From NCBI GenBank assembly GCA_963748825.1, contig CAVVKN010000022.1, positions 146,056 through 210,055 on the forward strand: a stretch of 64,000 bases of DNA. The letters are read 5' to 3'. Every line of letters starts with the position of its first letter. The stretch's first letter is position 1. This stretch comes from Methanotrichaceae archaeon. Lineage in GTDB: Archaea > Halobacteriota > Methanosarcinia > Methanotrichales > Methanotrichaceae. The translations under genes were made by a program, and so were the position numbers. The notes under the pieces were generated by a model. The model was given only the letters and a program-made list of their open reading frames with translations. It was not told the DNA's origin and searched no databases. Positions 11,671-62,957 of the stretch are shown here, piece by piece.

Positions 11671-14607
11671 TTGACGGTCTTTTTGGCAGTGCTGGCCTTT
11701 GTTAAGGACAGAGATGTGCTGCTTCCGATTTTGGATGCAATTACGATTGTGAGCAGTGGACTGGCTGCGGCTAGCATGCTGCTTACAGCGCAGCATTCTC
11801 AGGGAAGATCCAAAAAGGCCTGGACGCTATTAGCTGCAGCTCTGGTCTTCAATGCCTTTGGGGAAGCTTCCTGGGCTGTAATCGAGGTCGTCCTCCATCA
11901 AAATCCATTCCCTTCAGTAGCTGACATTGGCTACCTTGCGTTCTATCCTCTTTTTGCTATAGGCATCCTCCTCTTGCCTGAGGGACCTCTTTCTCCCCGG
12001 GATAAGCAAAAAAATCTTCTGGATGCGGCAATCGTTATCGTATCAGCAGCTCTGGTATTCTGGGTCTTCCTTATCGACCCGATTGTTGCTTCCACCAAAG
12101 GGATTACTATTAAATTGCTTTTCGCGGCAGCCTATACGATCATGGATCTGATTCTGTTCTTTGCTCTAATGGGGCTTCTCTTCAGAAAGCTCAATTCACT
12201 TGGACGTGATCCTGCCCTCATTCTGGCCCTTAGCTTGATCATCTTTTTAACGACCGATGCCATCTTCACCATTCAGACAAATCAGGGAACTTTTATCTCT
12301 GGCAGCTTCCTCGATACAGGCTGGCTGATAACCTATTTGTTGATAGGATTGGCAGGAGTGCTGCAGACAAACTCTCTTCCTTTTGAACCGCTGGGTGTAT
12401 TGGGCCCCATTCAGAGCAAAAGAGATGAATGGGTTCATTTCTTGCCTTACCTGGGAATTGGGGCAGCATTTTCCCTTCTCATCTGGGGTTATGAATACTC
12501 GCACTTAATCAATTATTCCGGCCTGGCTGCGTCGGTCGGGCTCATCATTGTGTTGATGTTCATCCGCCAGAAGGTGGCCTTTGATGAGCGAAATCAATTG
12601 CTCACCATGACCCTCTCGGAGATTGGGGAGCGAAAGCACGTTGAAGAGTCATTACGTAAATCAGAACAGGAGAAAGCGGCTATCTTGGGAGGCTTAAAAA
12701 ATGTTTCTGTCGAATACCTTGATCCCCTGATGCACATCATCTGGGTTAATACTCTCGTTCAAAGGTCTCTCGGCCTTTCAGAGGATGAAATTAAAGAGAA
12801 GCAATGCTTTAAGGCCATCTACGGCCTCGAAGTGCCCTGTGCAGGTTGCACTGCAGTCAAAGCCCTCCAGAGAGGTGAGTCCCAGGAGGGGGAATTAGTT
12901 ACTCCTGACGGCAAGACCTGGCTGTCTCGAAGTAGCCCCCTCAGGGATGCCGATGAAAAGATCACGGGAGCGGTTCATGTCGCTCTAGACATCAGCGAAC
13001 GCAAAAGTGCAGAGAGCGCCTTAAAAGAGTCAGAACGCCGGCTAGCGAACATCATAAACTTTCTGCCCGATGCTACCTTTGTTATCAACAAAGAGGGCAG
13101 AGTGATAGCCTGGAACCGGGCCATCGAGAAGCTGACCGGCACCAAGGCCGAGCAGATGCTGGGCAAGGGAGACTATGAATATGCACTGCCTTTTTACGGT
13201 GAGCGTAGGCCGATCCTCATAGATATGACTGTAAAGTACGATCCAGCTTTTGATGAGAAATATGAAATTATAAAAAGGCAAGAAGACGGCTCCATCGTTG
13301 GAGAATCCTACATGCCCAGGCTGAAAGATGGGGAAGCATACCTCCTGGGAAGCGCATCGGCGCTTTACGACTCTGACGGAAATTACTGGGGAGCGATCGA
13401 ATCGATACGCGATATAACCGATCGACGGCATGCTGAGGAAGAGCTGAAAAGGTCCAAGGAGGAAGCTGAATTCGCCACGCGTGCCAAGTCCGAATTCCTG
13501 GCCAACATGAGTCATGAGATTCGCACGCCTATGAATGCCGTTATAGGCTTGACAGGTCTTCTATTGGATGAGAATCTCACAGCGAGGCAGAGGGAGTACA
13601 TTGAAATTATTCACAGCAGCGGGGACACACTGCTCGCTATCATAAATAACATCCTTGATCTCACAAAAATCGAAGCTAATATGGTTGAGCTGGAGTGCCA
13701 GCCGATCGACCTGCAAAGCTGCATTGAGGCGGCCATGGATCTTGTGGCGGCTGCAGCCGCTGATAAGGGGCTAAACACAACTTGCACGATACAAGACGGC
13801 ACTCCAAAGTTGATTTTGGGCGATCCTACCAGGCTCAGCCAGATCATAATAAATTTACTCCATAATGCCGTGAAGTTCACGAAAAAAGGTGGAGTTGCAA
13901 TCACGGTCTCCAGCATAAAGCTTGAAGGAGATAACCATGAAATCCATTTTGCCGTAAAAGATACGGGAATTGGAATTCCTGAAGAGAAGATAGGCCGCCT
14001 GTTCCAGTCCTTCAGTCAAATCGATGCCTCGACTGCGCGCAGATACGGCGGCACTGGTCTCGGACTGGCCATAAGCAAAAAACTCGTGGAGATGATGGGC
14101 GGAAAAATATGGGCAGAAAGTGAGGCCGGCAAAGGTTCCACATTTCATTTCACCATCCCGGCAAAAACAACCCTTTGTGAGCCAATCGATATCTTTAAGC
14201 CTGCTTCTTTAGCGGTCAGTGATCAGCAAGGTCAACTGGACCACGACCTGAGCATACTGCTTGCAGAAGATAATACAGTCAACCAGATTGTGGCTAAGAA
14301 GATGCTTAAAAAGCTGGGGTATCGGGCGGATGTGGCCGCCAATGGCATAGAGGTTTTGCAGGCCCTGGAGCGCCAGCATTACGATGTTGTTTTCATGGAT
14401 GTACAGATGCCGGAGATGGACGGCCTGGATGCCACAAAGGCAATACGACAAAGATGGCAAAAAGGGCCTAAGATCATCGCTATGACGGCATCAGCTCTCA
14501 AAGGCGATCGAGAGATGTGTTTGGCGGCAGGAATGGATGGATACATAAGCAAGCCCACAAAGATGGAAGCGCTAAGGGCTGCTCTGGTGGCTTGCAGCAA
14601 AGGATGA
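11671..14607 (+). CDS. Membrane-bound hybrid histidine kinase (multi-TM, 2 PAS, HisKA, HATPase, REC)
   Basis: [13 protein letters not shown]-box, [26 protein letters not shown]; frame is open back to about 11575, so the start is uncertain. Confidence 0.93.
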
Positions 14608-17418: not shown

Positions 17419-20400
17419 ATGTCGTCTTTTCCGGGACAAGAAATGCAATTCAATGACGCACTACAGAAACTCAGCCAACTTCGCGCTCAATTAGATGATC
17501 TCAGAACCAAAAGCCAACTAGACCCAGCTTGCCTATCAGGGAAGCTATCCGATGCTTCCTTAGAGCTGCAAGCTATCGAAAGATTGCTTGAAGAGAAACG
17601 CGGCGCAGAAAGCTTGAAGATATCTATTCCTGAGAAAATGCTCATCACCCAGGATTTTCTGGAAAAGATAATCAATTCCATTGGAGATCCAATATTTGTC
17701 AGCGACGGGCAGCACAGATATTTATTTGTCAATGCTGCCAAGTACAGGTTCACCAATCTCGAGCCGGAGGATATAATCGGCAAGACATGTTACGATTTTT
17801 TCCCCAAAGAGCAGGCAGACATTTTCTGGGAAAAGGATGAAGAGGTCTTTTCCACAGGAAGAGAGAACGTAAATGAAGAATCTGTGACAGATGGTCAGGG
17901 CAATGTTCGAACCCTGATCACCAAGAAGACTGTTTACAAAGATAGGGCCGGCAATGAGTTTCTGGTAGGCATTGCCAGGGACATCACAGAGCGCAAAAAG
18001 ATGGAGGAGCAGCTAAAAAGGGCCCATGATGAAATGGAGAAGAGAGTCCTTGAGAGAACCGCAGAATTAGAAAAAGCCAACCAGGCCTTAACTGATACCA
18101 GAGACTCCCTGGAAAAAATAGTTAATTCTATTGGCGATCCGATTCATGTCAAGGACAGGAAGCACAGGGTAATTCTGGTCAACGATGCAGCTTGCAAGCT
18201 CTTCGGCCGCTCAAGAGATGAAATTTTGGGCAGGACCGCTTATGAACTGTTCCCCTCTCGAGAGATGGCAGAAATCTCCTGGCATAAAGACGAAGAGGTA
18301 TTTGCCACGGGAGAAGAGAACGTAAACGAGGAAACGAATACCTACGCTCCCGGCGTGACTTGCACCGTCCTGGTTAAAAAGACGCTCTATAAAGACAAAG
18401 CAGGAAATGAGTTTCTAGTGGGAGTGACCAGAGATATCACCGACCGCAAGCGGGCCGAGGAGGTGCTTCGGGAGAGCGAGGAGGGCTACCGGCAGCTATC
18501 CGAGGACATGCCGGCGTTCGTTTCGGCGTTTCTTCCCGACGGCACTTTGACCTATCTAAATAAGCCTCTGGCGGCATGGGACGACCGAGATCCCGCCGAG
18601 ATGATCGGGAGGAACTTCTACGATTTCCTGTCCCCCGCCGACCAGGAAATGGTCAGAGCAATTCTTGGCGCGCTTACACCAAAGCAGCCCCTTGAGACCC
18701 ACGTGCAACGATATCTGATGCCGGACGGCAGAGTGCTCTACCACGAGTGGACCAACCGGGCCTTTTTTAATGAGGCAGGCCAGCCCACCCGCTATCAAGC
18801 CGTCGGGTTGGACATCACTGAGCGCAAGCAGGCCGAGGAGGCGCTGATTGAGAGCGAGAAAAAGTATAGCCTGCTGATAAACAATGCTAACGAATCAATC
18901 CTCGTCGCGCAAGATGGCCTGTTCAAGTTTGTCAATCCCGCGACGCTTGGCCTGTTGGGGGTGCATTCGGAGCATGAACTCATTGACAGACCATTTCCCA
19001 AATTCATCCACCCGGATGATCGGAGCATGGTGGTTGAAAATTACCGTCGACGGATCACAAGCGAGGCCACACCGCCCCGGTACGCCTTCAGAGTGGTTAC
19101 TCCGGAAGGCATTGTCAAGTGGGTTGAAATCAATGCGACCTTGATTGAATGGCAAGGCAAACCAGCCACGTTGAATTTCCTCATCGACATGACTGAGCGC
19201 AAGCAGACGGAGGAAGCTCTTTTAGAATCGGAACAGCGCTTAATGGACATTATTGATTTTCTGCCCGATGCGACCTTCGTCATCGACAGAGAGGGAAAGG
19301 TGGTAGCCTGGAACAGGGCCATCGAGGCCATGACCGGCATCCCGTCCGAGGATATGATCGGAAAAGGCGATTATGAGTACGCATTGCCCTTTTATGGAAC
19401 CCGCAGGCCTATACTGATCGATCTGGTTTTAAAAGCCGACCGAGAGGCCGAGAGCAAGTATGATCATATTGAGAAGAAAGGAAGAGCTCTCATGGGAGAA
19501 GCCTACATGCCCAACATGAGGGGCAGAATTGTCTATCTCGTAGGCAGCGCCACGGTTCTCTACGATCCGCAGGGAGATGTCTTTGGTGCCATAGAGTCCA
19601 TCCGCGACATCACAGAGAGCAAGCAGGCCGAAGACAGACTGATTGAGGCAAAAGAGGCAGCAGAAGCAGCAGTCAGGTCCAAATCCGAATTCTTGGCCAA
19701 CATGAGCCACGAGATCAGAACGCCCCTCAATGCCGTAGTGGGTCTGACCGGATTGCTCCTGGAAGCGGACTTGACTGCGCAAGAGAGGGATTATGTAGAG
19801 ACGGTGAGAAGCTCCGGCAACTCCTTGCTCTCGGTTATAAATGACATACTGGACTTTTCCAAGATTGAGGGAGACAAGATGGAGCTTGAGAGTCACCCCT
19901 TCAATCTGCAGGAATGCATTTTTGTGGCGGTAGATCTGGTAAAAGCAGAAGCAGAGAAAAAAGGGCTGGCAATAAAATACTGCCTGGATGAAGCGATTCC
20001 GGCATACTTCAAAGGAGATGTCACCAGGCTTCGTCAGGTATTGGTCAACCTGCTGAGCAATGCTGTCAAATTCACGCAAGCTGGAACAATAGAGATCTCT
20101 GTGACAGCAAAGCCGATACAGACCACAAATAGCCGACAATATGAGCTTCATTTTTCCGTTATAGATACCGGTATTGGAATTCCTGAGGAAAAGACGGACC
20201 GGCTATTTCAATCGTTCTCCCAGATAGATTCCACCATCACACGCAAGTACGGCGGAACCGGCCTGGGCCTGGCCATCAGCCGCAGGCTGGTGGAGCTGAT
20301 GGGCGGTGAGATTTGGGTGGTCAGCCAGCCGGGATTGGGCTCCACCTTCCATTTTACAATTATAGCCGAGGAGGCGGAGGAAATATCGATTCCCGTCGAT

Positions 20401-20811
20401 TCTTGCGCTAAGAAAGCAAAAACGGACGCCAGCCGGAAGAACGCCAGACCGCTGCGCATTTTGCTGGCGGAGGACAATGCCGTCAACCAGAAGGTCGCCA
20501 TTCAGATGCTAAAGCGGCTCGGCTACAGCGCGGATGTGGCCGGCAATGGTCTCGAGGTCTTGCAGGCAATAGAACGCCAGCCCTACGATGTCGTTCTCAT
20601 GGATGTGCAGATGCCGGAGATGGACGGCCTGGTGGCCACGCAAGAGATCCGCAAGCTGTGGCCCAAGGGGCCCAGGATCATAGCCATTACCGCCTACGCC
20701 CTGAAAGGCGACCGGGAACGTTGCCTGGCTGCCGGCATGGACGATTACATCAGCAAGCCCATTGTAATCGAGGATCTGAGAAGGGTTTTAGAGATGGCGA
20801 CTAGAGATTAA
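17419..20811 (+). CDS. Cytoplasmic multi-PAS hybrid histidine kinase
   Basis: Five PAS/PAC units ending in DIT(E/D)RK-like motifs, H-box SHEIRTP, G boxes, REC domain. Confidence 0.94.
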
Positions 20812-39429: not shown

Positions 39430-40967
39430 CCTTAACTCCGCGATTTAGGGCTTAAATTTGATATTATTTTAAATTTTTAACCGCTTGTAAATTATTTCAA
39501 TGGAAATCTATAAATATATGTATTCCCTAATATACCATACATGGACGAATGGGCAAAATTATGGCTGATTGAACAAAGAAAAATGGGAAAGAAAGGACTA
39601 GAAATTAAATATATAAGTAACCATCATTATGTCTATCATTCAACGACACACTGGGATAAGCAACTCAAAAAACGAATAAAAGATTCCGATTATATCGGCA
39701 AGCTGGATCGCACTAAAGGGCTTATTGAGGGAGTTAAGCGATCGGTAACCGCGAAAAATCTTCGAGGCATAAAAGAGTATGGTAACGCAATGCTATTTGA
39801 CCGTATTCTTACCGATATGAGGTCATGCCTTGAGGATGCTTTCAAAGATGAGTGGGAAGAAATCTATGCTCTAGCGATAACGCGAGCATCTGGCTATATG
39901 CCATTGAAACGAGTTCATTCTGCCTGGGATAAAATATATAATGTTCAAAAGATAAATCCAAATTTGGATGCAAAGAACTTAAGCCATGTGTTGAAAGCTG
40001 TTGGAATAGACAGTCAAGCACAGGATTCCGTTTTTAGAGCCCTATCTGAAAAGGACAAAGATCTCGTGTATGATTTGAGCACTGTGTTGACCAAGTCATC
40101 AATAAATTTTGCAGAGTTTGGCTATAACAAGAACAAGATCCACATTCCTCAAATAAATATCGCGCTGTTTTGCTCTCTGGAGACAGGCTTGCCCACTTTG
40201 ATTAGAACGATACCAGGAAGCGTTCGCGACATAAAGAGTCTCTATAACAGCATCGTTGAAGCCAATAAAGAAGGATCGACGATCATATTGGATAGAGGTT
40301 TCTTTTCGAAGGATGCCATTAAATTCCTGCTAGAAAAGAAAATGAGCTTCATTTTGCCTGCCAGAAGAAACAGTCTACTTTATGGGACAGATATAGGTCT
40401 GAATAATCACCTATTTTATCAGGATAGATTGATAAAATGCGGAAAAGGAAAAATTGAGGACATTTTTCTTTATTTATACGAAGACCAACAATTAATGCTT
40501 GAAGAAAACATCACGCTCTATCAAAAACTAGACGAGGGAAAAATCGACGCCAATAAACTTAGTGAGGCGCAGAAGCGTGCTGGAAAGATCCTGATAGTGT
40601 CTAATCTCGATTTAGACGCGAATACTATATTTATGCAATATAAAAGTAGAGACCGAATCGAGAAGCTTTTCGATACCTACAAAAATGCTCTTCAAGCAGA
40701 CATTCTCTATTTGCAGGATAATGAAAGTGTCTTCGGGCATATTTTTATCTCGTTTTTATCATTATATGCATACACAAAGATTGAGGTGGCTCTGAAAAAA
40801 GCTGACCTTTTAAGAAAGCAATCTCCAAAAGACATCCTGCTTGATCTGAGCAAGGTGTACTTAGTAGAATTAAATGACTGCAATATAATTTCAGAGATAC
40901 CTAGAAAATTAGAGACGCTTGACGCAAAATTAGGATTTAATTTATTCCCTAAAAACCGGAGTTAAGG
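39430..40967 (+). mobile_element. IS1634-family insertion sequence, intact
   Basis: TIRs CCTTAACTCCGCGATTTAGGG (39430-39450) and CCCTAAAAACCGGAGTTAAGG (40947-40967), 18/21 match; 6-bp TSD TTGGAT at 39424-39429 and 40968-40973. Confidence 0.92.
39541..40965 (+). CDS. DDE transposase (IS1634-type)
   Basis: YDLS, FGYNK, PGSVRD, LDRGFFS, YKSRDRIEKLF motifs. Confidence 0.93.
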   Translation: MDEWAKLWLIEQRKMGKKGLEIKYISNHHYVYHSTTHWDKQLKKRIKDSDYIGKLDRTKGLIEGVKRSVTAKNLRGIKEYGNAMLFDRILTDMRSCLEDAFKDEWEEIYALAITRASGYMPLKRVHSAWDKIYNVQKINPNLDAKNLSHVLKAVGIDSQAQDSVFRALSEKDKDLVYDLSTVLTKSSINFAEFGYNKNKIHIPQINIALFCSLETGLPTLIRTIPGSVRDIKSLYNSIVEANKEGSTIILDRGFFSKDAIKFLLEKKMSFILPARRNSLLYGTDIGLNNHLFYQDRLIKCGKGKIEDIFLYLYEDQQLMLEENITLYQKLDEGKIDANKLSEAQKRAGKILIVSNLDLDANTIFMQYKSRDRIEKLFDTYKNALQADILYLQDNESVFGHIFISFLSLYAYTKIEVALKKADLLRKQSPKDILLDLSKVYLVELNDCNIISEIPRKLETLDAKLGFNLFPKNRS

Positions 40968-43786: not shown

Positions 43787-44270
43787 ATGGGTCTAACTAG
43801 TATTATGCATTTCAAGGTCAAAAATATCAAAGGCCACAAATATTTGTATCTCATTAAAAATGATCGCATTGATGGGAAGGTCGTGCAAACAATCCAAAAA
43901 TATGTTGGAACCGCAGATAGCCTGTATGAAATGCTTACCTCTAACAAGTCTATTCGTATTGCCTCATATAGTCTCGGGAAACCTGCCGCTTTGATTAAGG
44001 CAGCTGAAGAAGTTGGTCTGATTGAGAGCATCAATAAGCACTTCAATCGGAAGAAAATTGATGGTCTGACGGCGGCTCAATACCTCCTCCTAATTATCAT
44101 TGGCAGATCTGAGCATGAACTTAGCCGAAATGTTCTCGGTGGCTATTTTAATAAGAGTGTCCTAAAATTCATTTGGAACCCCAAATATAAACTTTCAAGC
44201 CAAAATTTTCTTAATTATATGGCTCACCTTGATGAGGAGACTATCCAGAACATCGAACTGGATGTGTCGC
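43787..44270 (+). pseudogene. N-terminal fragment of a second IS1634-type transposase
   Basis: KNIKGHKYLY...RIDGKVVQ...YVG N-terminus; ends before the DDE core. Confidence 0.7.
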
Positions 44271-44376
44271 CATGCGTCATCGGTTAAGGCGCAAATCAAT
44301 TATAACAAGGCAAGAATTGTTCTTCTCACTTGACACTAGAATAGTGGCGTGGCCTAGAAGGCTCTCGATTATTTTT

Positions 44377-45363
44377 GCTGTGTCGATTAAATTTAAATAG
44401 CTAAAATATACATATAATGCCATGAAACATGTTGATACCAGAGACTGGCCAGAATATAATGCCAAACTTGTTCGAAGAGGCGAATTCTATCTCGATTTGA
44501 GTTGCGTGAAGAACTGGAGTTGGGAATTAAGAGAAATGAACAGAAAGAAAACAGGCGCTCCAAACAAATACCCGAATACTTTTATAACTTTTGCATCAAT
44601 AATATACTCTTTCTTTCGAATGCCATATCGTCAACTTGAAGGATTCATTGGACGACTTTCAACCTATGAACCAGGATTAGTGGCGGCAGATTATACCACA
44701 CTCCATAAGCGAATCTCTAAGCAATCTCTTGAGATCCAGATACCTGAGAATGATGCTGTTGTTGCAGTTGATTCAACTGGGATAAGGTAACAAATAGGGA
44801 GGATTGGATGCGCGAGAAACACGGAAAGCAGCGGCGAGGATGGCTTAAAGTTCATGTGGCAGTCGACGTTGAATCAAAGAGATTATTGTCAATGGAAGTT
44901 ACAGAAGAAGATACATCGGATTGCGAGGTTTTGCGCCCTTTGTTGAAAGACGTCAATATTAAGAGGGGTTAATGGATGGCGCATATGACACAAACGACGC
45001 ATTTAGATTTATGAAATCGAAAGGTGTGGATTGTCCAGGGATTAAGATCAGAGGGAACGCGATAGTAGGCAAAGATGCATCAGCCAGGTCAACAGCTGTT
45101 CCGGAATTTAAAAAAATGGGCCACAAGGGCTGGAAGCAAACGCATCAGTACGAAAGAAGGTGGGCAGTTGAAGGCTTCTTCTCATCGATCAAGCGTATCT
45201 TTGGAGAGACGGTTCGGGCATCTTCATCCGAAGGAATGGTCGCCGAGATTAAAAGAGCATTCATTTTGTATAATATACTTATGAACATATAGATAATTAT
45301 CTTAAACTGAATTATAAATTTTAAAGTTGAAAATATTAATAATATACAATTAAGCGACACAGC
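44377..45363 (+). mobile_element. IS5-family (IS903-like) element with frameshifted transposase
   Basis: TIRs GCTGTGTCGATTAA (44377-44390) and TTAAGCGACACAGC (45350-45363), 13/14 match; no TSD seen. Confidence 0.85.
44422..45292 (+). pseudogene. IS5-family transposase with two frameshifts (about 44787 and 44965)
   Basis: WPEYNAKLVRRG, DSTG, WLKVHVAVD, DGAYD, RWAVEGFFSSIKRIFG distributed across frames. Confidence 0.85.
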
Positions 45364-58115: not shown

Positions 58116-58412
58116 ATGTTAATGGGAAAGAAAGCCAAGCCCGAGTCGCCGGAGGAGATGGCTCTGGTGCATCACGCCCTGGAAAGTCCCATTCGGAGGA
58201 ATATGATCATCCTCATGAATCAGGGGGTTTTGAGCGTGCCGGAGATTGCGGCAGCGGTGGGCGAGAAGATGCTCGACTACCATCTGCACCGCCTGGAGCT
58301 GGCCGGGCTGATCGAGCTATCGGAGGGGAAAATTGTGCTCACCGAGGCGGGAGTGGCCTACGGCGGGCTGGTGGCAAAGCAGAAAGATATGGGTGGGGCG
58401 GACAAGATCTGA
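58116..58412 (+). CDS. Winged-helix (ArsR-like) protein
   Basis: ALESPIRRNMI...LDYHLHRLELAGLI. Confidence 0.85.
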   Translation: MLMGKKAKPESPEEMALVHHALESPIRRNMIILMNQGVLSVPEIAAAVGEKMLDYHLHRLELAGLIELSEGKIVLTEAGVAYGGLVAKQKDMGGADKI

Positions 58413-58674: not shown

Positions 58675-61600
58675 ATGACTGGATTGACCTGGCTTCATCT
58701 TTCGGATTGGCACCAAGCAGAACAGAAATTCAATCGCAAAGTGGTTTGCGATGCCCTTATTAAGGATATAAAAACGAGAGGAGAAATAAATCCTCATTTG
58801 AGTAAAATAGATTTCGTTGTCTTTAGCGGGGATGCAGCCAACACCGGACAGCCAGATGAGTACAAGAAGGCAACCGAGGATTTATTTAAGCCTCTTTTAG
58901 AAGCCTGCCAATTGGGACAAGACAGACTTTTTATTGTCCCGGGCAATCACGACTTAGATCGAGATTTAATTCCTGCTGCGCTTTTGAAGCTTTTGAACTC
59001 CAATGAAGAAGTTGAGGCATGTTGGAGCGACGAAAGAAATAGAAGGCTGTTATCGCAACCGTTCCAGGCTTTTAATCGCTTTCTGACTGATTGCACCGGC
59101 CAAAAACCACCGGAATATTGCAGCGTTGCCTCATTCGTGATCGACGGCAGAAAAATAGACTTGCTAGGTATCAATTCCGCATGGATGTGTGCACGCCATA
59201 AAGACGAGGATGGGAAAATTAGCGATCAAGGATATCTCTGCATTGGTGAACCGCAGATCTATGAGTCTCTTGAGAATATCTCGGACTCTGATATCAAAAT
59301 TGCCGTACTTCACCATCCACTCGACTGGTTGACTCCATTCGATTCAAGCCGAAATGAGGTTCATTTAAAACGAAAATGCAATTTCATACTGCATGGTCAT
59401 GCCCATAAGCCTGGAGCATCAGCAATTAGAGATAATTTTGGCTATTATATCACAATTCCAGCAGGTGCTTGCTATGACAGAAGCATGCCCTCAAATTCAG
59501 ACTACACCTATTCGTACAATTATGTCCATTTGGATTTTGATACAGACAAAGGCTTTGTCTTTCTGCGTCGGTGGAGCGATTTAAACAGGGTTTGGCGGAA
59601 AGACGACGAGACATTTCCTCCAAATGGACAATTTCACTTTTCAATTTCGGGATCGGACAAACCTCCCATTCCCAGCCAAATCCCACCGCCCCCGCGTGAC
59701 TTCAAAGGCCGCGAAGAAGAGATCACGGACATCCTCTCCAACTTCGAAAAAGGAGCTACCATCACCGGCCTGCGTGGCATGGGCGGCGTGGGCAAGACCG
59801 CCCTGGCCCTGGTCCTGGCAGATAAAATCAAGAGCCAATTTCCCGATGGCCAGATCTTCGTAGATATGCGGGGAACAAGCAATAATCCGGAATTGCCTCC
59901 CCTGACACCCGCTGAGGCCATGGCTCAGGTCATCCGGGCCTACAATCCTGCTGATCGCCTGCCGGAAAACTCAAATGAACTGCGTGGTTTGTATCTCTCA
60001 ATTCTGGCTGGCAAACGTGCTCTCTTGCTGCTGGACAATGCCGCCGGCGGCGAGCAAGTGGAGCCTCTGCTGCCGCCCGCAGGCTGCGCCGTTCTAATCA
60101 CATCGAGAATTAAATTTGCCTTGCCCGGTTTGGCGGAAAAAGATCTGGACATTTTGCCTAAAGATAAAGCGTGCGAGCTTCTTCTTGAAATTGCCCCACG
60201 TATTGGCGATCGGGCCGAAGAGCTGGCAAAACGATGTGGCTACCTTCCTATTGCGCTACGCAATGCAGCCAGCGCTCTAGCTGAAAAACGGGATTTAAGC
60301 GTTCCCGAGTATGAAAGACTTCTGAAGGATAAGGTAGCACTGCTTAAATTAGTAGAAGGGTCCTTCAGCCTCAGCTATGACTCTGCTCACTCCCGGAAGA
60401 AAAAAGCAATGGCGGCGTTTATCGGTCTTTCCAGAAGATTTCGATCGCAATGCTGCGACTGCAGTTCTAAAGATGGCTCCAGATCCATCGGCAGAGGCTC
60501 TAAGCGATTTGGTGCGATGGAGCCTGGTGGACTTTGCTGCAATACCGGATTCTGAGGATGGTCGATACAAACTTCATGATTTGGCTCGTCTTTTCGCAGA
60601 ATCGTGTCTCGAACAAGATGAACTTGCCGATGCCCAGCAGAAACATGCCAAGTATTACTCGAAGGTGCTTTCTCAAGCTGAAAATCTCTATGAAAAAGGT
60701 GGGACGAATGTCTTAGCAGGACTCAAGCTTTTCGATCGTGAATGGGCCAATATCAAAGTTGGACAAGCCTGGGTTAAGAACATAATTCCAGTACTCCAGC
60801 AAATTGAAAAAGAGTGATTTGAAATCAGTCCTGCAATTGGCCAGCTCTTACGCGAACGATGGCGTCAACGTTTTGTCTTTGCGCCTGCATCCAAGGGATA
60901 AAATTGGCTGGCTTGAAACGGGCTTAAAAGCAGCAAAGATGATGGGGGATCGAAGCGCTGAAAGCGCCCATTTGGGCAACCTGGGGCTGGCCTACGCCGA
61001 TCTGGGCGAGACGCGCAAGGCCATCGGGTACTATGAGCGGGCCCTGAAGATCATCCGCAAGATTGGTGACAGAAGGGGCGAAGGAGCCTGCCTGGGCAAC
61101 CTGGGCAACGCCTACGCCGACCTGGGCGAGACACGCAAGGCCATCGAATACTACGAGCAGGCCCTGGCCATCTCACGCGAGATCGGGGACCGAAGGGGCG
61201 AAGGAGCTCACCTGGGCAACCTGGGCGGCGCCTACGCTGACCTGGGCGAGACTCGCAAGGCCATCGAGTACTACGAGCAGGCCCTGGCCATATCACGCGA
61301 GATCGGAGACAGAAGGGGCGAAGGAAATCACCTGGGCAACCTGGGCAATAGCCTACTCCGATCTGGGCGAGACGCGCAAGGCCATCGAGTACCACGAGCA
61401 AGCCTTGGCCATCTCCCGCGAGATCGGCGACCGAAGGGGCGAAGGGAGTCGCGCTGGGCAACCTGGGCGGCGCCTACGCCGATCTGGGCGAGACTCGCAA
61501 GGCCATCGAGTACCATCGAGCAGGCCCTGGCCATATCTCGCGAGATCGGCGACAGAAGGGGCGAAGGAGATCACCTGGGCAACCTGGGCCTGGCCTACGC

Positions 61601-62218
61601 CGACTTGGGCGAGACACGCAAGGCCATCGATTACCACGAGCAGGCCCTGGCCATCTCTCGTGAGATCGGCGACAGAAGGGGCGAAGGAATCCAGCCTGGG
61701 CAACCTGGGCCTGGCCTACGCCGCACTGGGCGAGACGCGCAAGGCCATCGAGTACCACGAGCAGGCCCTGGCCATCGCTCGCGAGATCGAGGACAAACGG
61801 AACGAAGGAGAATTACTCTGCAATTTAGGCAAAGCCTACCTGGACCTGAATGAAACCGACAAAGCCATCGAATACTGCACGCAGTCGCTGGACATCGTTC
61901 GCAAGATCGAATATCGGAAAATTGAGGGCGAAGCGCTCTGCATTTTGGGCAAAGCCTATTCTGATCTTGGCCAGATCGACAAGGCGATCGATCATTGCGA
62001 TCAAGCGCTGAAGATCTTCAAAAAGATGGAATATCGCCGGGGAGAGGGCGAGGCCCTCTTCACCAAGAGCCAGGCTCTGGACAAGCTCGGCCAGCGAACG
62101 GAAGCAGCATCCCTCGCAAATGAAGCCCTCCAGATCTTCCTGCAGATCGAAAGCCCCCACGCCGAAAAGGTCCGCCAGCAAGCTGGCCGAGTGGGGCGCG
62201 AGCCCGGAGGAGAATTAG
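58675..62218 (+). CDS. Metallophosphoesterase-NB-ARC-TPR (NLR/Avs-like STAND) protein, frameshifted in this assembly
   Basis: LSDWH, GD, PGNHD, HHP, HGHAH; Walker A GMGGVGKT, LLLLDNA, ITSR, GYLPIAL, LHDL; TPR array. Frame breaks near 60380, 60795, 61350, 61450, 61513, 61692 and 62180; stop TAG 62216-62218. Confidence 0.85.
60972..61815 (+). repeat. Seven tandem 120-bp TPR-coding repeats
   Basis: Units start at 60972, 61092, 61212, 61332, 61454, 61575 and 61696 with (C/T)TGGGCAACCTGGG; degenerate units follow. Confidence 0.95.
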
Positions 62219-62219
62219 C

Positions 62220-62957
62220 ATGCAAGTCATCTTTCTCGGCACCAACGGCTGGTACGACAGCCCCACCGGCAACACCATCTGCACCCTCATCAACTCCGAC
62301 AAGTACCACATCATCCTGGACGCCGGAAACGGCCTTTACAAAGCGGACCGCTACATCAAGGACGACCTGCCCGTCTTTCTCTTCTTAAGCCACTTCCACC
62401 TGGACCACATCGAGGGGCTGCACGTCCTCAGCAAGTTCCGCTTCAAAAGCCTCACCATCTTCGGCCAGAAGGGCACCAAAGCGGCCCTCAATACTATTAT
62501 CAACGAGCCCTTCACCGTCCCCCTGGACAAGCTGCCCTACCCGGTGGAGGTGCGCGAGCTGTCTCCGGGGCCCTACAAGCTGCCCTTCGCCCTGGACTGC
62601 CGCTTCCTGGTGCACGCCTCGCCCTGCCTGGGCTATCGCTTCGATCTGGACGGCAAGATCATCACCTACTGCCCGGACACGGGAGTATGCGAGAACGCCG
62701 TGCTCCTGGCTGCGGATGCCGACCTGCTCATTGCGGAATGCGCCCACCTGCCCGGCGAAGAGAACCCGGCGTGGCCGCACCTCAATCCGGAAGATGCCGC
62801 AGACATCGCCCGGCAGGCGAAAGCCAAACGGCTGGCCCTCACCCACTTCGATGCAGGACGGTACACGAGCCTGCAAATGAGGCGTGAGGCTGTGGCGACG
62901 GTAGGGGACTTTCCAGGAATTGTGGTGGGAGAGGACGAGCTGGTGCTGCAGCTTTAG
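62220..62957 (+). CDS. MBL-fold hydrolase (RNase Z/BN-like)
   Basis: FLGTNGW, DAGNG, SHFHLDH, PDT, LTHF. Confidence 0.9.
   Translation: MQVIFLGTNGWYDSPTGNTICTLINSDKYHIILDAGNGLYKADRYIKDDLPVFLFLSHFHLDHIEGLHVLSKFRFKSLTIFGQKGTKAALNTIINEPFTVPLDKLPYPVEVRELSPGPYKLPFALDCRFLVHASPCLGYRFDLDGKIITYCPDTGVCENAVLLAADADLLIAECAHLPGEENPAWPHLNPEDAADIARQAKAKRLALTHFDAGRYTSLQMRREAVATVGDFPGIVVGEDELVLQL

Follow-up and report, generated by a model that had tools for sequence, protein, structure and literature searches.

What does a gene encode whose reading frame is interrupted seven times, and are the interruptions present in the cell at all? These questions are raised by a locus on contig CAVVKN010000022.1 of a Methanotrichaceae archaeon (GenBank assembly GCA_963748825.1). 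The window analyzed here is the 64,000-nucleotide stretch at positions 146,056 to 210,055 of the forward strand of this contig, and all coordinates below are those of the window. The gene (58675..62218, + strand) codes for a metallophosphoesterase domain, an NB-ARC domain, and an array of tetratricopeptide repeats (TPRs), as determined from Pfam matches and intact full-length relatives. The array is the sensor domain of one NOD-like receptor (NLR)-like STAND gene of a Methanothrix archaeon, and 1178 amino acids (aa) are encoded if the seven extra bases are ignored. The seven frameshifts are probably an artefact of the consensus, into which both bases of a variant pair were entered in tandem.

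The gene was delimited by comparison with its relatives. Among the 7999 protein-collection candidates scored, 525 were relatives at E ≤ 0.001; the best 20 (P0001–P0020) were 73–92% identical over the N-terminal 573 aa, and the source-named ones were labelled Methanothrix. ATG 58675 (M6) was considered the likelier start: orthologues begin with MTGLTW there, and some of them have a stop codon just 5' of the matching Met. The mechanical open reading frame (ORF) starts at TTG 58660. The true stop was placed at TAG 62216–62218 by alignment to orthologues. The putative effector is a calcineurin-like metallophosphoesterase domain (58693..59412, + strand, residues 12–251; PF00149, 53.3 bits), which had weak PDB matches to the Rv0805/Icc phosphodiesterases (E about 1e-3). 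Its metal-binding motifs D16xH18, G57D58, G95N96H97D98, H218H219, and G246H247xH249 were invariant in 28/28 aligned sequences, and so were Walker A (G373-MGGVGKT380) and D459 (Walker B) of the NB-ARC nucleotide-binding switch domain (59716..60321, + strand, residues 353–554; PF00931, 35.2 bits, cut-off 23.5). The PDB matches of the latter were AfsR (E 7e-33) and the plant NLRs Roq1 and Sr35 (E 1e-4). The TPR domain (TPR_12, 91.2 and 84.6 bits in two in-frame pieces) is on the same strand. It opens with an N-cap (60795..60971, in-frame SSKLKKSDLKSVLQLASSYANDG...SAESAH), helical in the AlphaFold2 model of the orthologous region, and continues with a core array of seven 40-aa LGN-type TPR units, u1–u7 (60972..61815), identified by Tandem Repeats Finder, anchors, and unit alignment. 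Two degenerate TPR units, u8 and u9, and a C-terminal cap follow (61816..62178; unit extraction and alignment).

The metallophosphoesterase-NB-ARC-TPR gene was called NLR-like because of its Pfam domains, the invariant catalytic and Walker residues, and the PDB matches to AfsR and plant NLRs. The features of a STAND protein were found, namely a central NB-ARC domain with Walker A and B, a C-terminal repeat sensor, and an N-terminal effector that is swapped among paralogues. In relatives P0089–P0112, NB-ARC regions 71–95% identical to that of the window stand behind SIR2_2 (SIR2-like), caspase, and MinD-like N-terminal domains; judged from these sequences, such swaps are the effector swapping typical of NLR-like families.

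The array was the only one reported by Tandem Repeats Finder (60973–61789, period 120 nt, 6.8 copies, 87% matches). Its LGNLG anchors start at 60973, 61093, 61213, 61333, 61455, 61576, and 61697, with spacings of 120, 120, 120, 122, 121, and 121 nt, which leaves four surplus bases. In a scan of the window, a 23-nt unit motif matched seven times (0.01 expected), each time inside the array. The first-pass annotation had described the units as near-identical at the DNA level: the array is real, and the wording was too strong, as pairwise DNA identity is 78–96% (mean 85.5% for u1–u7 and 89.7% for u2–u6; u3 and u5, 96%). Amino acid identity averaged 85.1% for u1–u7 and 92.2% for u2–u6 (200 aa, minimum 89.5%), so that u2–u6 lie above the repeat threshold of Dyrka 2014 (>85% identity over at least 100 aa). 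Units u8 and u9 were 55–66% identical to the other units and 91–93% identical to the last units of other genomes. The variable residues listed by the first-pass annotation after LGNLG, before it, and at the Y/H site agree with the unit translations. Position 6, the residue after LGNLG, reads L, N, G, broken, G, L, and L in u1–u7; the residues preceding LGNLG are, in order, AH (from the N-cap), AC, AH, NH, broken, DH, and I followed by a broken codon. Positions 39–40 read AC, AH, NH, VA or SR, DH, Ix, and EL in u1–u7, and position 21 reads Y, Y, Y, H, broken, H, and H.

Frame tracking gave seven +1 shifts in the gene, all described here on the + strand: four in the array and three outside it, at about 60381, 60793, and 62179. 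The latter were located by alignment to syntenic orthologues (L025, L002, L003, L004, and L005 for the N-terminal part and four orthologues for the C-terminal part; L numbers denote the fetched loci). Insertion 1 (60381..60382, frame 1 to 2) is in the NB-ARC/winged-helix region and reads GA[C]T CTG, with the extra base in brackets; the base was missing in 5/5 orthologues, whose adjacent column reads T/C/C/T/T. Insertion 2 (60793..60794, frame 2 to 3), GT[A]C TCC in the linker 5' of the TPR domain, was likewise missing in 5/5 orthologues, and the adjacent column reads C/C/C/A/A. Insertion 7 (62179..62180, frame 1 to 2), CAG[C]AAG in the C-terminal tail, was missing in 4/4 orthologues, with A/A/A/C in the next column, and it brings back the orthologous tail ...KLAEWG...EEN and the stop. 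In the array, insertion 3 (AATA, 61347..61350, frame 3 to 1) falls on codon 6 of unit 4, insertion 5 (CATC, 61514..61517, frame 2 to 3) on codon 21 of unit 5, where the other units have TAT, TAC, or CAC, and insertion 6 (CAGC, 61692..61695, frame 3 to 1) on codon 40 of unit 6; the family entropies of positions 6 and 40 are 2.71 and 3.68. Insertion 4 (61444..61453, frame 1 to 2) falls on codons 38–40 of unit 4 and is ambiguous in placement, being either GG[G]A, in a GGG run at the conserved Gly38 codon, or CGC[G], after the Ser-Arg that ends at codon 40. Bearing on this choice, SR occurs three times and VA 0 times at positions 39–40 of 506 family repeats.

The seven lesions were uniform. All were +1 insertions, no deletion and no larger lesion was found, and none lay in a run of four or more identical bases, which agrees with the earlier remark that no indel sits in a homopolymer, though one parse of insertion 4 is a GGG run. 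The same annotation had assigned the four array indels to variable codons; this held for three of them and, for insertion 4, depends on the placement, and the insertions are not confined to such codons, 3/7 being outside the array. The four translated restored-frame segments (one pre-shift and three post-shift non-core segments) contained 0 stops. At 3/3 unambiguously alignable sites, which are the non-array ones, the inserted base equals the alternative orthologue state of the neighboring column; the chance of such a match is about 0.17 per site and 0.005 for three, in a test devised post hoc. The context of insertion 1, ACTCT, rules out duplication of a neighboring base, and insertion 2 is an A between T and C. 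In 3/4 array stacks, one of the two stacked bases is the one that most other units have at that site, giving GGA at codon 38 and CAC at codons 21 and 40. Judged from the alignments, four insertions (60381, 60793, unit-4 codons 38–40, and unit-5 codon 21) would fit a wobble position for which two synonymous bases were written.

The restored protein is conserved on both sides of the first shift. Against L025, L003, and L004, the ratio of nonsynonymous to synonymous substitution rates (dN/dS) was 0.14–0.17 before the first shift; after it, the ratio was 0.18–0.19 in the winged-helix segment, 0.18–0.31 in the C-terminal units, and 0.24–1.33 in the N-cap segment, which is small (59 codons). The syntenic orthologues L003 (1018 aa), L004 (1100 aa), and L005 (1099 aa) are intact and in a single frame throughout. 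No split gene was found among the other 50 window ORFs scanned, which include those of intact 1171-, 1130-, and 978-aa proteins.

These observations bear on the view that the gene is a genuine, recently decayed pseudogene, with the insertions present in the genome and the receptor dead in the lineage. Decay of this kind appears rather unlikely: 7/7 lesions are +1 insertions without a deletion, a stop, or a larger lesion, at least two of them (60381 and 60793) cannot be a duplicated neighboring base, the inserted bases are orthologue alternatives at 3/3 alignable sites, constraint is unchanged 3' of the first frameshift, and seven lesions lie within 1.8 kb, yet the other 50 scanned ORFs are unsplit. 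It would be favored by the lesions of two relatives (L025 has a nonsense codon and L022 two frameshifts), by the fact that immune-type genes are often lost, and by two protein searches, from which no intact protein near the window's own allele was obtained (best identity 92%). In one of these, with the 631-aa frameshifted ORF, no strong match in the protein collection reproduced the out-of-frame tail; the strong matches end where the first frameshift lies, about 91% of the way along the query, and the search neither supports nor excludes a real frameshift. A further search for a near-identical intact allele, with the in-frame N-cap and u1–u3, was swamped by repeat-rich TPR proteins (5702 matches at E < 1e-40, best identity 79%) and was uninformative.

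If the extra bases are an artefact, the source of the variant bases has to be considered. The first-pass annotation had proposed that the consensus merges different alleles. The merging of variants fits the seven +1 insertions, the lack of long homopolymers and stops, and the three alternative bases; the variants may stem from alleles or from mis-mapped reads. In the latter case the genome would be clonal, without population diversity, and reads of neighboring units or of paralogous NB-ARC-TPR genes would have been mis-mapped in polishing. This explanation is possible, if somewhat doubtful. It would account for the majority base of other units in 3/4 array stacks (codons 38, 21, and 40) and for the location of all four array lesions in the inner units u4–u6, the most mutually alike, and the family has paralogues whose NB-ARC-TPR module, behind SIR2, caspase, and MinD-like domains, is 71–95% identical. 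At 61347–61350, on the other hand, neither stacked base is present in the other units, and the segment 59680–60380, which is also common to the paralogues, has no insertion. Mis-mapping between units alone is insufficient because three sites are in single-copy sequence, and these sites would require either alleles that were assembled together or a close paralogue at another place in the genome. Such a paralogue would have to be sufficiently similar, and there is none in the window, where a paralogous array was also sought as a source of mis-mapped reads and none was found. Assembly trouble at the receptor gene is general: a contig ends inside the gene at 7/24 Methanothrix-type loci (L001, L002, L010, L020, L038, L039, and L041), at four of them within the array. 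A relative 57% identical to this Methanothrix-type protein, encoded on a 2.4-kb contig (L019), is filed in a Muribaculaceae genome bin, which is probably a binning error.

The frameshifts might also be decoded or exploited by the cell, through programmed +1 ribosomal frameshifting, transcriptional slippage, or the use of the gene as a silent frameshifted cassette from which expressed paralogues receive units by gene conversion. The open and conserved restored frames and the exchange of units between diverged genes (see below) would suit such uses. They are nevertheless highly improbable, since no slippery or stimulatory motif is common to the seven sites (GACTCTG, GTACTCC, AATAGCC, GGGAGTC, CATCGAG, CAGCCTG, and CAGCAAG), the orthologues have this protein in one uninterrupted frame, and the gene, unlike a cassette, has a complete effector and NB-ARC domain. 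We know of no precedent for seven consecutive programmed shifts in one gene. Programmed frameshifting was rejected on the lack of a common motif and on the absence of the extra base from 5/5 and 4/4 orthologues at the non-array sites.

The variable positions were mapped in 871 forty-residue repeats from 114/120 homologues, of which 491 core repeats were used (score ≥ 55, from 92 proteins with at least three such repeats). Entropy was highest at positions 40 (3.68), 39 (2.99), 10 (2.92), 6 (2.71), and 9 (2.39), and the same positions ranked at the top by within-protein differences. Position 21, which the first-pass annotation had also counted as variable, varies in the window, and its family entropy is moderate (1.83 vs 2.7–3.7 for positions 6, 10, 39, and 40). 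An AlphaFold2 model was made of the TPR domain of L025, by sequence the closest orthologue with a complete TPR domain (378 aa, 18-row alignment). The model is an all-helical solenoid (mean predicted local distance difference test score (pLDDT) 89.2, predicted template modelling score (pTM) 0.83), in which DSSP placed helix A at positions 34–40 and 1–10 and helix B at positions 14–31. By helical periodicity, six helix-A positions (36, 39, 40, 6, 7, and 10) fall no more than 60 degrees from Asn3, and they are more variable (mean entropy 2.59) than the ten remaining positions of the helix (0.92; permutation p 0.0018).

The best PDB matches to the TPR domain were LGN/GPSM2/Pins (phmmer E 4e-49, about 30% identity; Foldseek E 2.6e-15, template modelling score 0.57–0.59). 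LGN is an animal spindle-orientation adaptor. The likeness to the LGN structures (3SF4, 4WNG, 6HC2, 3RO2, and 4A1S) lies in the 40-residue period and in the Leu-Gly-Asn triplet that starts helix A; unlike the receptor, LGN has GoLoco motifs and eight mutually diverged repeats, with no NB-ARC domain and no effector. The two are similar in fold and binding mode without being members of one family. In the LGN structures, helix A is turned toward the inner groove (PMC6525239), and Asn residues of the LGN triplets hydrogen-bond the main chain of the ligand (PMC3438535), in the text of these papers that was available. The variable residues are predicted to lie in the groove because they are within 60 degrees of Asn3 and helix A is the inner helix in LGN, and by this periodicity and homology they would surround a backbone-binding Asn ladder. 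The question raised by the first-pass annotation, whether the variable sites line the concave TPR face, is answered in the affirmative to that extent, as the positions of highest entropy are on the Asn face of helix A. The 40-residue LGN-type TPR unit is itself widespread. In the 5702 proteins with E < 1e-40, it is found behind CHAT, kinase, TIR, NACHT/AAA, and NB-ARC domains, and the source-named matches are from cyanobacteria, Anaerolineae, Acidobacteriia, and Brocadia.

The array differs in length between genomes in steps of one unit. The lengths of 20/20 top homologues were within 4 aa of 1018 + 40k, a series that also includes the window gene (1178 aa), and L003, L004, L005, and L025 have 3–7 core units; the repeat-number differences were seen between species-level genomes. 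Inner units u3–u6 have their best match inside the window (0.90–0.96), and the edge units u1, u7, u8, and u9 have theirs in the same-position units of other genomes (0.89–0.93 vs 0.66–0.86 in the window). Such interior similarity against edge orthology is the pattern expected if unequal exchange turns over the interior of the array. Unit u2 is 93% DNA-identical to units of L039, whose N-terminal half is 63% identical in protein; units therefore appear to move between diverged genes or to be homogenized across them. The window array, with a mean internal identity of 0.855, is more homogeneous than any of 16 related arrays (77 units, 176 pairs), whose means are 0.66–0.84. Homogeneous arrays are probably under-represented in short-read assemblies.

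Substitutions are concentrated at the variable positions. In the window array, nonsynonymous divergence per site (pN) was 0.45 at positions 6, 9, 10, 39, and 40 vs 0.057 elsewhere. The dN/dS of these positions was 0.54 vs 0.21 for the rest in the window and 0.72 vs 0.18 for the rest in the 16 arrays, in a test that is weak because the synonymous sites of the few hypervariable codons are near saturation. The positions appear to be strongly relaxed or diversifying; as dN/dS never exceeded 1 at the hypervariable codons, it was rejected as proof that selection there is positive and diversifying. A diversity-generating retroelement was rejected for the window: no reverse transcriptase was found among the 52 ORFs scanned, and the unit motif occurs only in the array. 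The array variation affects whole codons at fixed positions, vs the adenine-specific pattern of retroelement targets. A retroelement could be present elsewhere in the genome.

By analogy with STAND and NLR proteins, a ligand bound in the concave TPR groove would release the NB-ARC switch, and the protein would then oligomerize and the phosphoesterase be activated, as its architecture suggests. Specificity would be set by unit positions 36, 39, 40, 6, 7, and 10, on the Asn-bearing face of the inner helix A, and the array would evolve by duplication, loss, and exchange of inner units together with substitutions at these positions. The seven +1 shifts are most likely absent from cells, the consensus having written both variant bases in succession, and the variants would come from co-assembled alleles of a fast-evolving gene or from reads of paralogues or neighboring units. 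More tentatively, filamentous Methanothrix populations may keep several co-existing receptor alleles at one locus, with the seven stacked-base frameshifts as the fingerprint of collapsed alleles. Such alleles would be diversified by substitutions on the Asn-bearing groove face and by shuffling of inner units, both inside one gene and among genes, and deep classes would persist across species. The first-pass annotation had suggested that a recognition code is diversified by repeat shuffling as in fungal HET/NLR repeats; comparative support for this comes from the 40-aa length steps, the similarity of the inner units, the u2–L039 identity, and the variable face; dN/dS, being below 1, lends it no support.

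Several points weigh against an intact and diversifying immune-type receptor whose frameshifts are doubled variants. Inactivation is real among relatives: codon 59 of the phosphoesterase domain is an in-frame stop in L025 (L025:6016-6300), and in L022 there are two compensating frameshifts 5' of the TPR domain (L022:8020-8230), one of them near insertion 2 of the window; L022 is from another assembly and these may be errors too. The test for doubled alleles was devised after the data had been seen and rests on three sites. The pattern of the array sites is ambiguous, as the corresponding column of the other six units has neither the T nor the A of 61347–61350. A doubled wobble base would be mimicked by about two thirds of insertions made at random (2/3 offsets), which makes this pattern weak by itself. 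The dN/dS of the hypervariable codons (0.54–0.72) is compatible with relaxed constraint rather than diversifying selection. Finally, the matches to defence families cover only the first about 250–300 residues, and the NCBIfam ones are below their cut-offs.

The comparison with defence systems gave no full-length membership above threshold in PADLOC-DB 2.0 or in the NCBIfam families DS8 and DS9, the matches being to the phosphoesterase domain only. PADLOC matches were PDC-S60 (E 1.3e-36, profile positions 4–254 of 1027) and 'Effector endonuclease', and the NCBIfam anti-phage matches were DS8 (E 1.7e-35, 122 bits vs a cut-off of 790) and DS9_1 (63 vs 420). The anti-phage proteins Avs and bNACHT are STAND ATPases that carry an enzymatic effector at the N terminus and a repeat sensor at the C terminus. 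The receptor resembles them and the phosphoesterase-bearing candidates in its STAND ATPase, repeat sensor, and N-terminal enzyme. Whereas the receptor is headed by an enzyme, AfsR is a transcription factor. The AfsR-type SARP-NB-ARC-TPR proteins (8K60, 8JKE; NF053617) provide the closest solved NB-ARC module (E 7e-33; NF053617 E 1.6e-40); unlike them, the receptor scores 138.9 bits vs the NF053617 cut-off of 1430 and has no SARP DNA-binding domain.

A closer parallel is found in fungi. As described in the available part of Dyrka 2014 (PMC4986451), fungal NLRs have TPR, ANK, and WD repeats that are more than 85% identical, polymorphic in number, and positively selected at concave sites. The receptor is like them (Podospora Pa_2_10340; the NACHT-WD40 proteins HET-E/HET-D) in combining an effector, NB-ARC, and TPR units more than 85% identical, in a repeat number that differs between alleles or orthologues, in variable positions on the concave-lining helices, and in related nucleotide-binding and repeat modules behind different N-terminal domains. 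It differs from the fungal proteins, as far as that part of the paper extends, in being archaeal, in its 40-residue LGN-type units (a kinesin-light-chain template served for the fungal model), and in its dN/dS of at most 1, as opposed to positive selection at three fungal TPR sites. It also differs in having a metallophosphoesterase as effector and in a repeat-number polymorphism that lies between species-level genomes.

According to the accessible text of Dyrka 2020 (10.1101/2020.01.06.895854), internally conserved repeats are also found in prokaryotic NLRs, those of aggregate-forming archaea among them, and these NLRs may diversify in a similar way. The paper shows a Bell-domain protein of Methanothrix soehngenii and cites Marold 2015 and Hu 2017 for repeats 80–90% identical. 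The receptor resembles the NB-ARC/TPR and NACHT/WD NLRs of multicellular bacteria and aggregate-forming archaea, as presented in that text, in architecture and in high internal repeat conservation, and its sequence places it, as an archaeal member, in the known class of NLRs whose repeats show high internal conservation. No description of the metallophosphoesterase-headed family, its position map, or its locus was found in the literature searched, available in part, and absence from the literature is not proven. In the available part of Kaur et al. 2020 (PMC7159879), calcineurin-type phosphodiesterase effectors appear in other systems only, and Methanothrix and this architecture are not mentioned.

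The surroundings of the receptor gene are conserved. Downstream, the ATG of a metallo-β-lactamase (MBL)-fold hydrolase gene (62220..62957, + strand; PF12706, 74.2 bits) is 1 nt after the receptor stop. The product resembles RNase Z and cyclic-nucleotide phosphodiesterases in NCBIfam, below the cut-offs. An MBL gene lies 3' of the receptor in 11/80 fetched loci (L003, L004, L005, L006, L008, L017, L024, L025, and L035, with L016 and L050 partial) and starts within a few bases of the receptor stop in the loci with a mapped stop; given this arrangement, the hydrolase may be a functional partner of the receptor. Upstream, a 98-aa ORF with no Pfam match (58116..58412, + strand) is a conserved neighbor, present in 18/80 fetched loci at 73–94% identity. 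In L025, the MBL gene (91%), the upstream ORF (87%), and the receptor N-terminal half (92%) are about equally similar to those of the window. In L006, the values are 94%, 92%, and 67%, and in L008 and L024, whose loci do not contain the upstream ORF, the MBL gene is 94% and 93% and the receptor N-terminal half 63% and 62% identical, respectively. In these three loci, flanking genes at 92–94% stand against receptor halves at 62–67%, whereas both are about 90% in other genomes. At least two deep receptor classes seem to occupy one conserved locus, which could reflect trans-species polymorphism or allele replacement.

Other features of the window were recorded apart from this locus. DDE transposase genes are located at 39541–40965 and 43787–44790 (PF01609; PF13737 on a 122-aa ORF beside a 166-aa ORF without a family) and are insertion-sequence copies or fragments in an otherwise housekeeping region. 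Two large hybrid histidine kinases with PAS and receiver domains are encoded close together (11671–14607 and 17419–20811).

What looks like a pseudogene with seven frameshifts is probably an intact receptor gene of the immune type. The signature of stacked bases, in which both states stand in tandem, always as +1 and never in a homopolymer, can flag collapsed variants in assemblies and can also point to loci of unusually high population diversity. Repeat-conserved NLR sensors, described in fungi and noted in bacteria, are extended to a methanogenic archaeon, with an explicit map of candidate specificity positions (36, 39, 40, 6, 7, and 10, beside the LGN asparagine) and with a conserved locus at which the receptor has diverged far more than its neighbors. 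If the proposal of diversified alleles is true, the locus would serve virus defence or allorecognition, as an archaeal counterpart of the HET/NLR loci by which fungi recognize non-self. If alleles do co-exist in its populations, Methanothrix would be tractable for asking whether repeat shuffling predates eukaryotes or arose convergently in multicellular prokaryotes.

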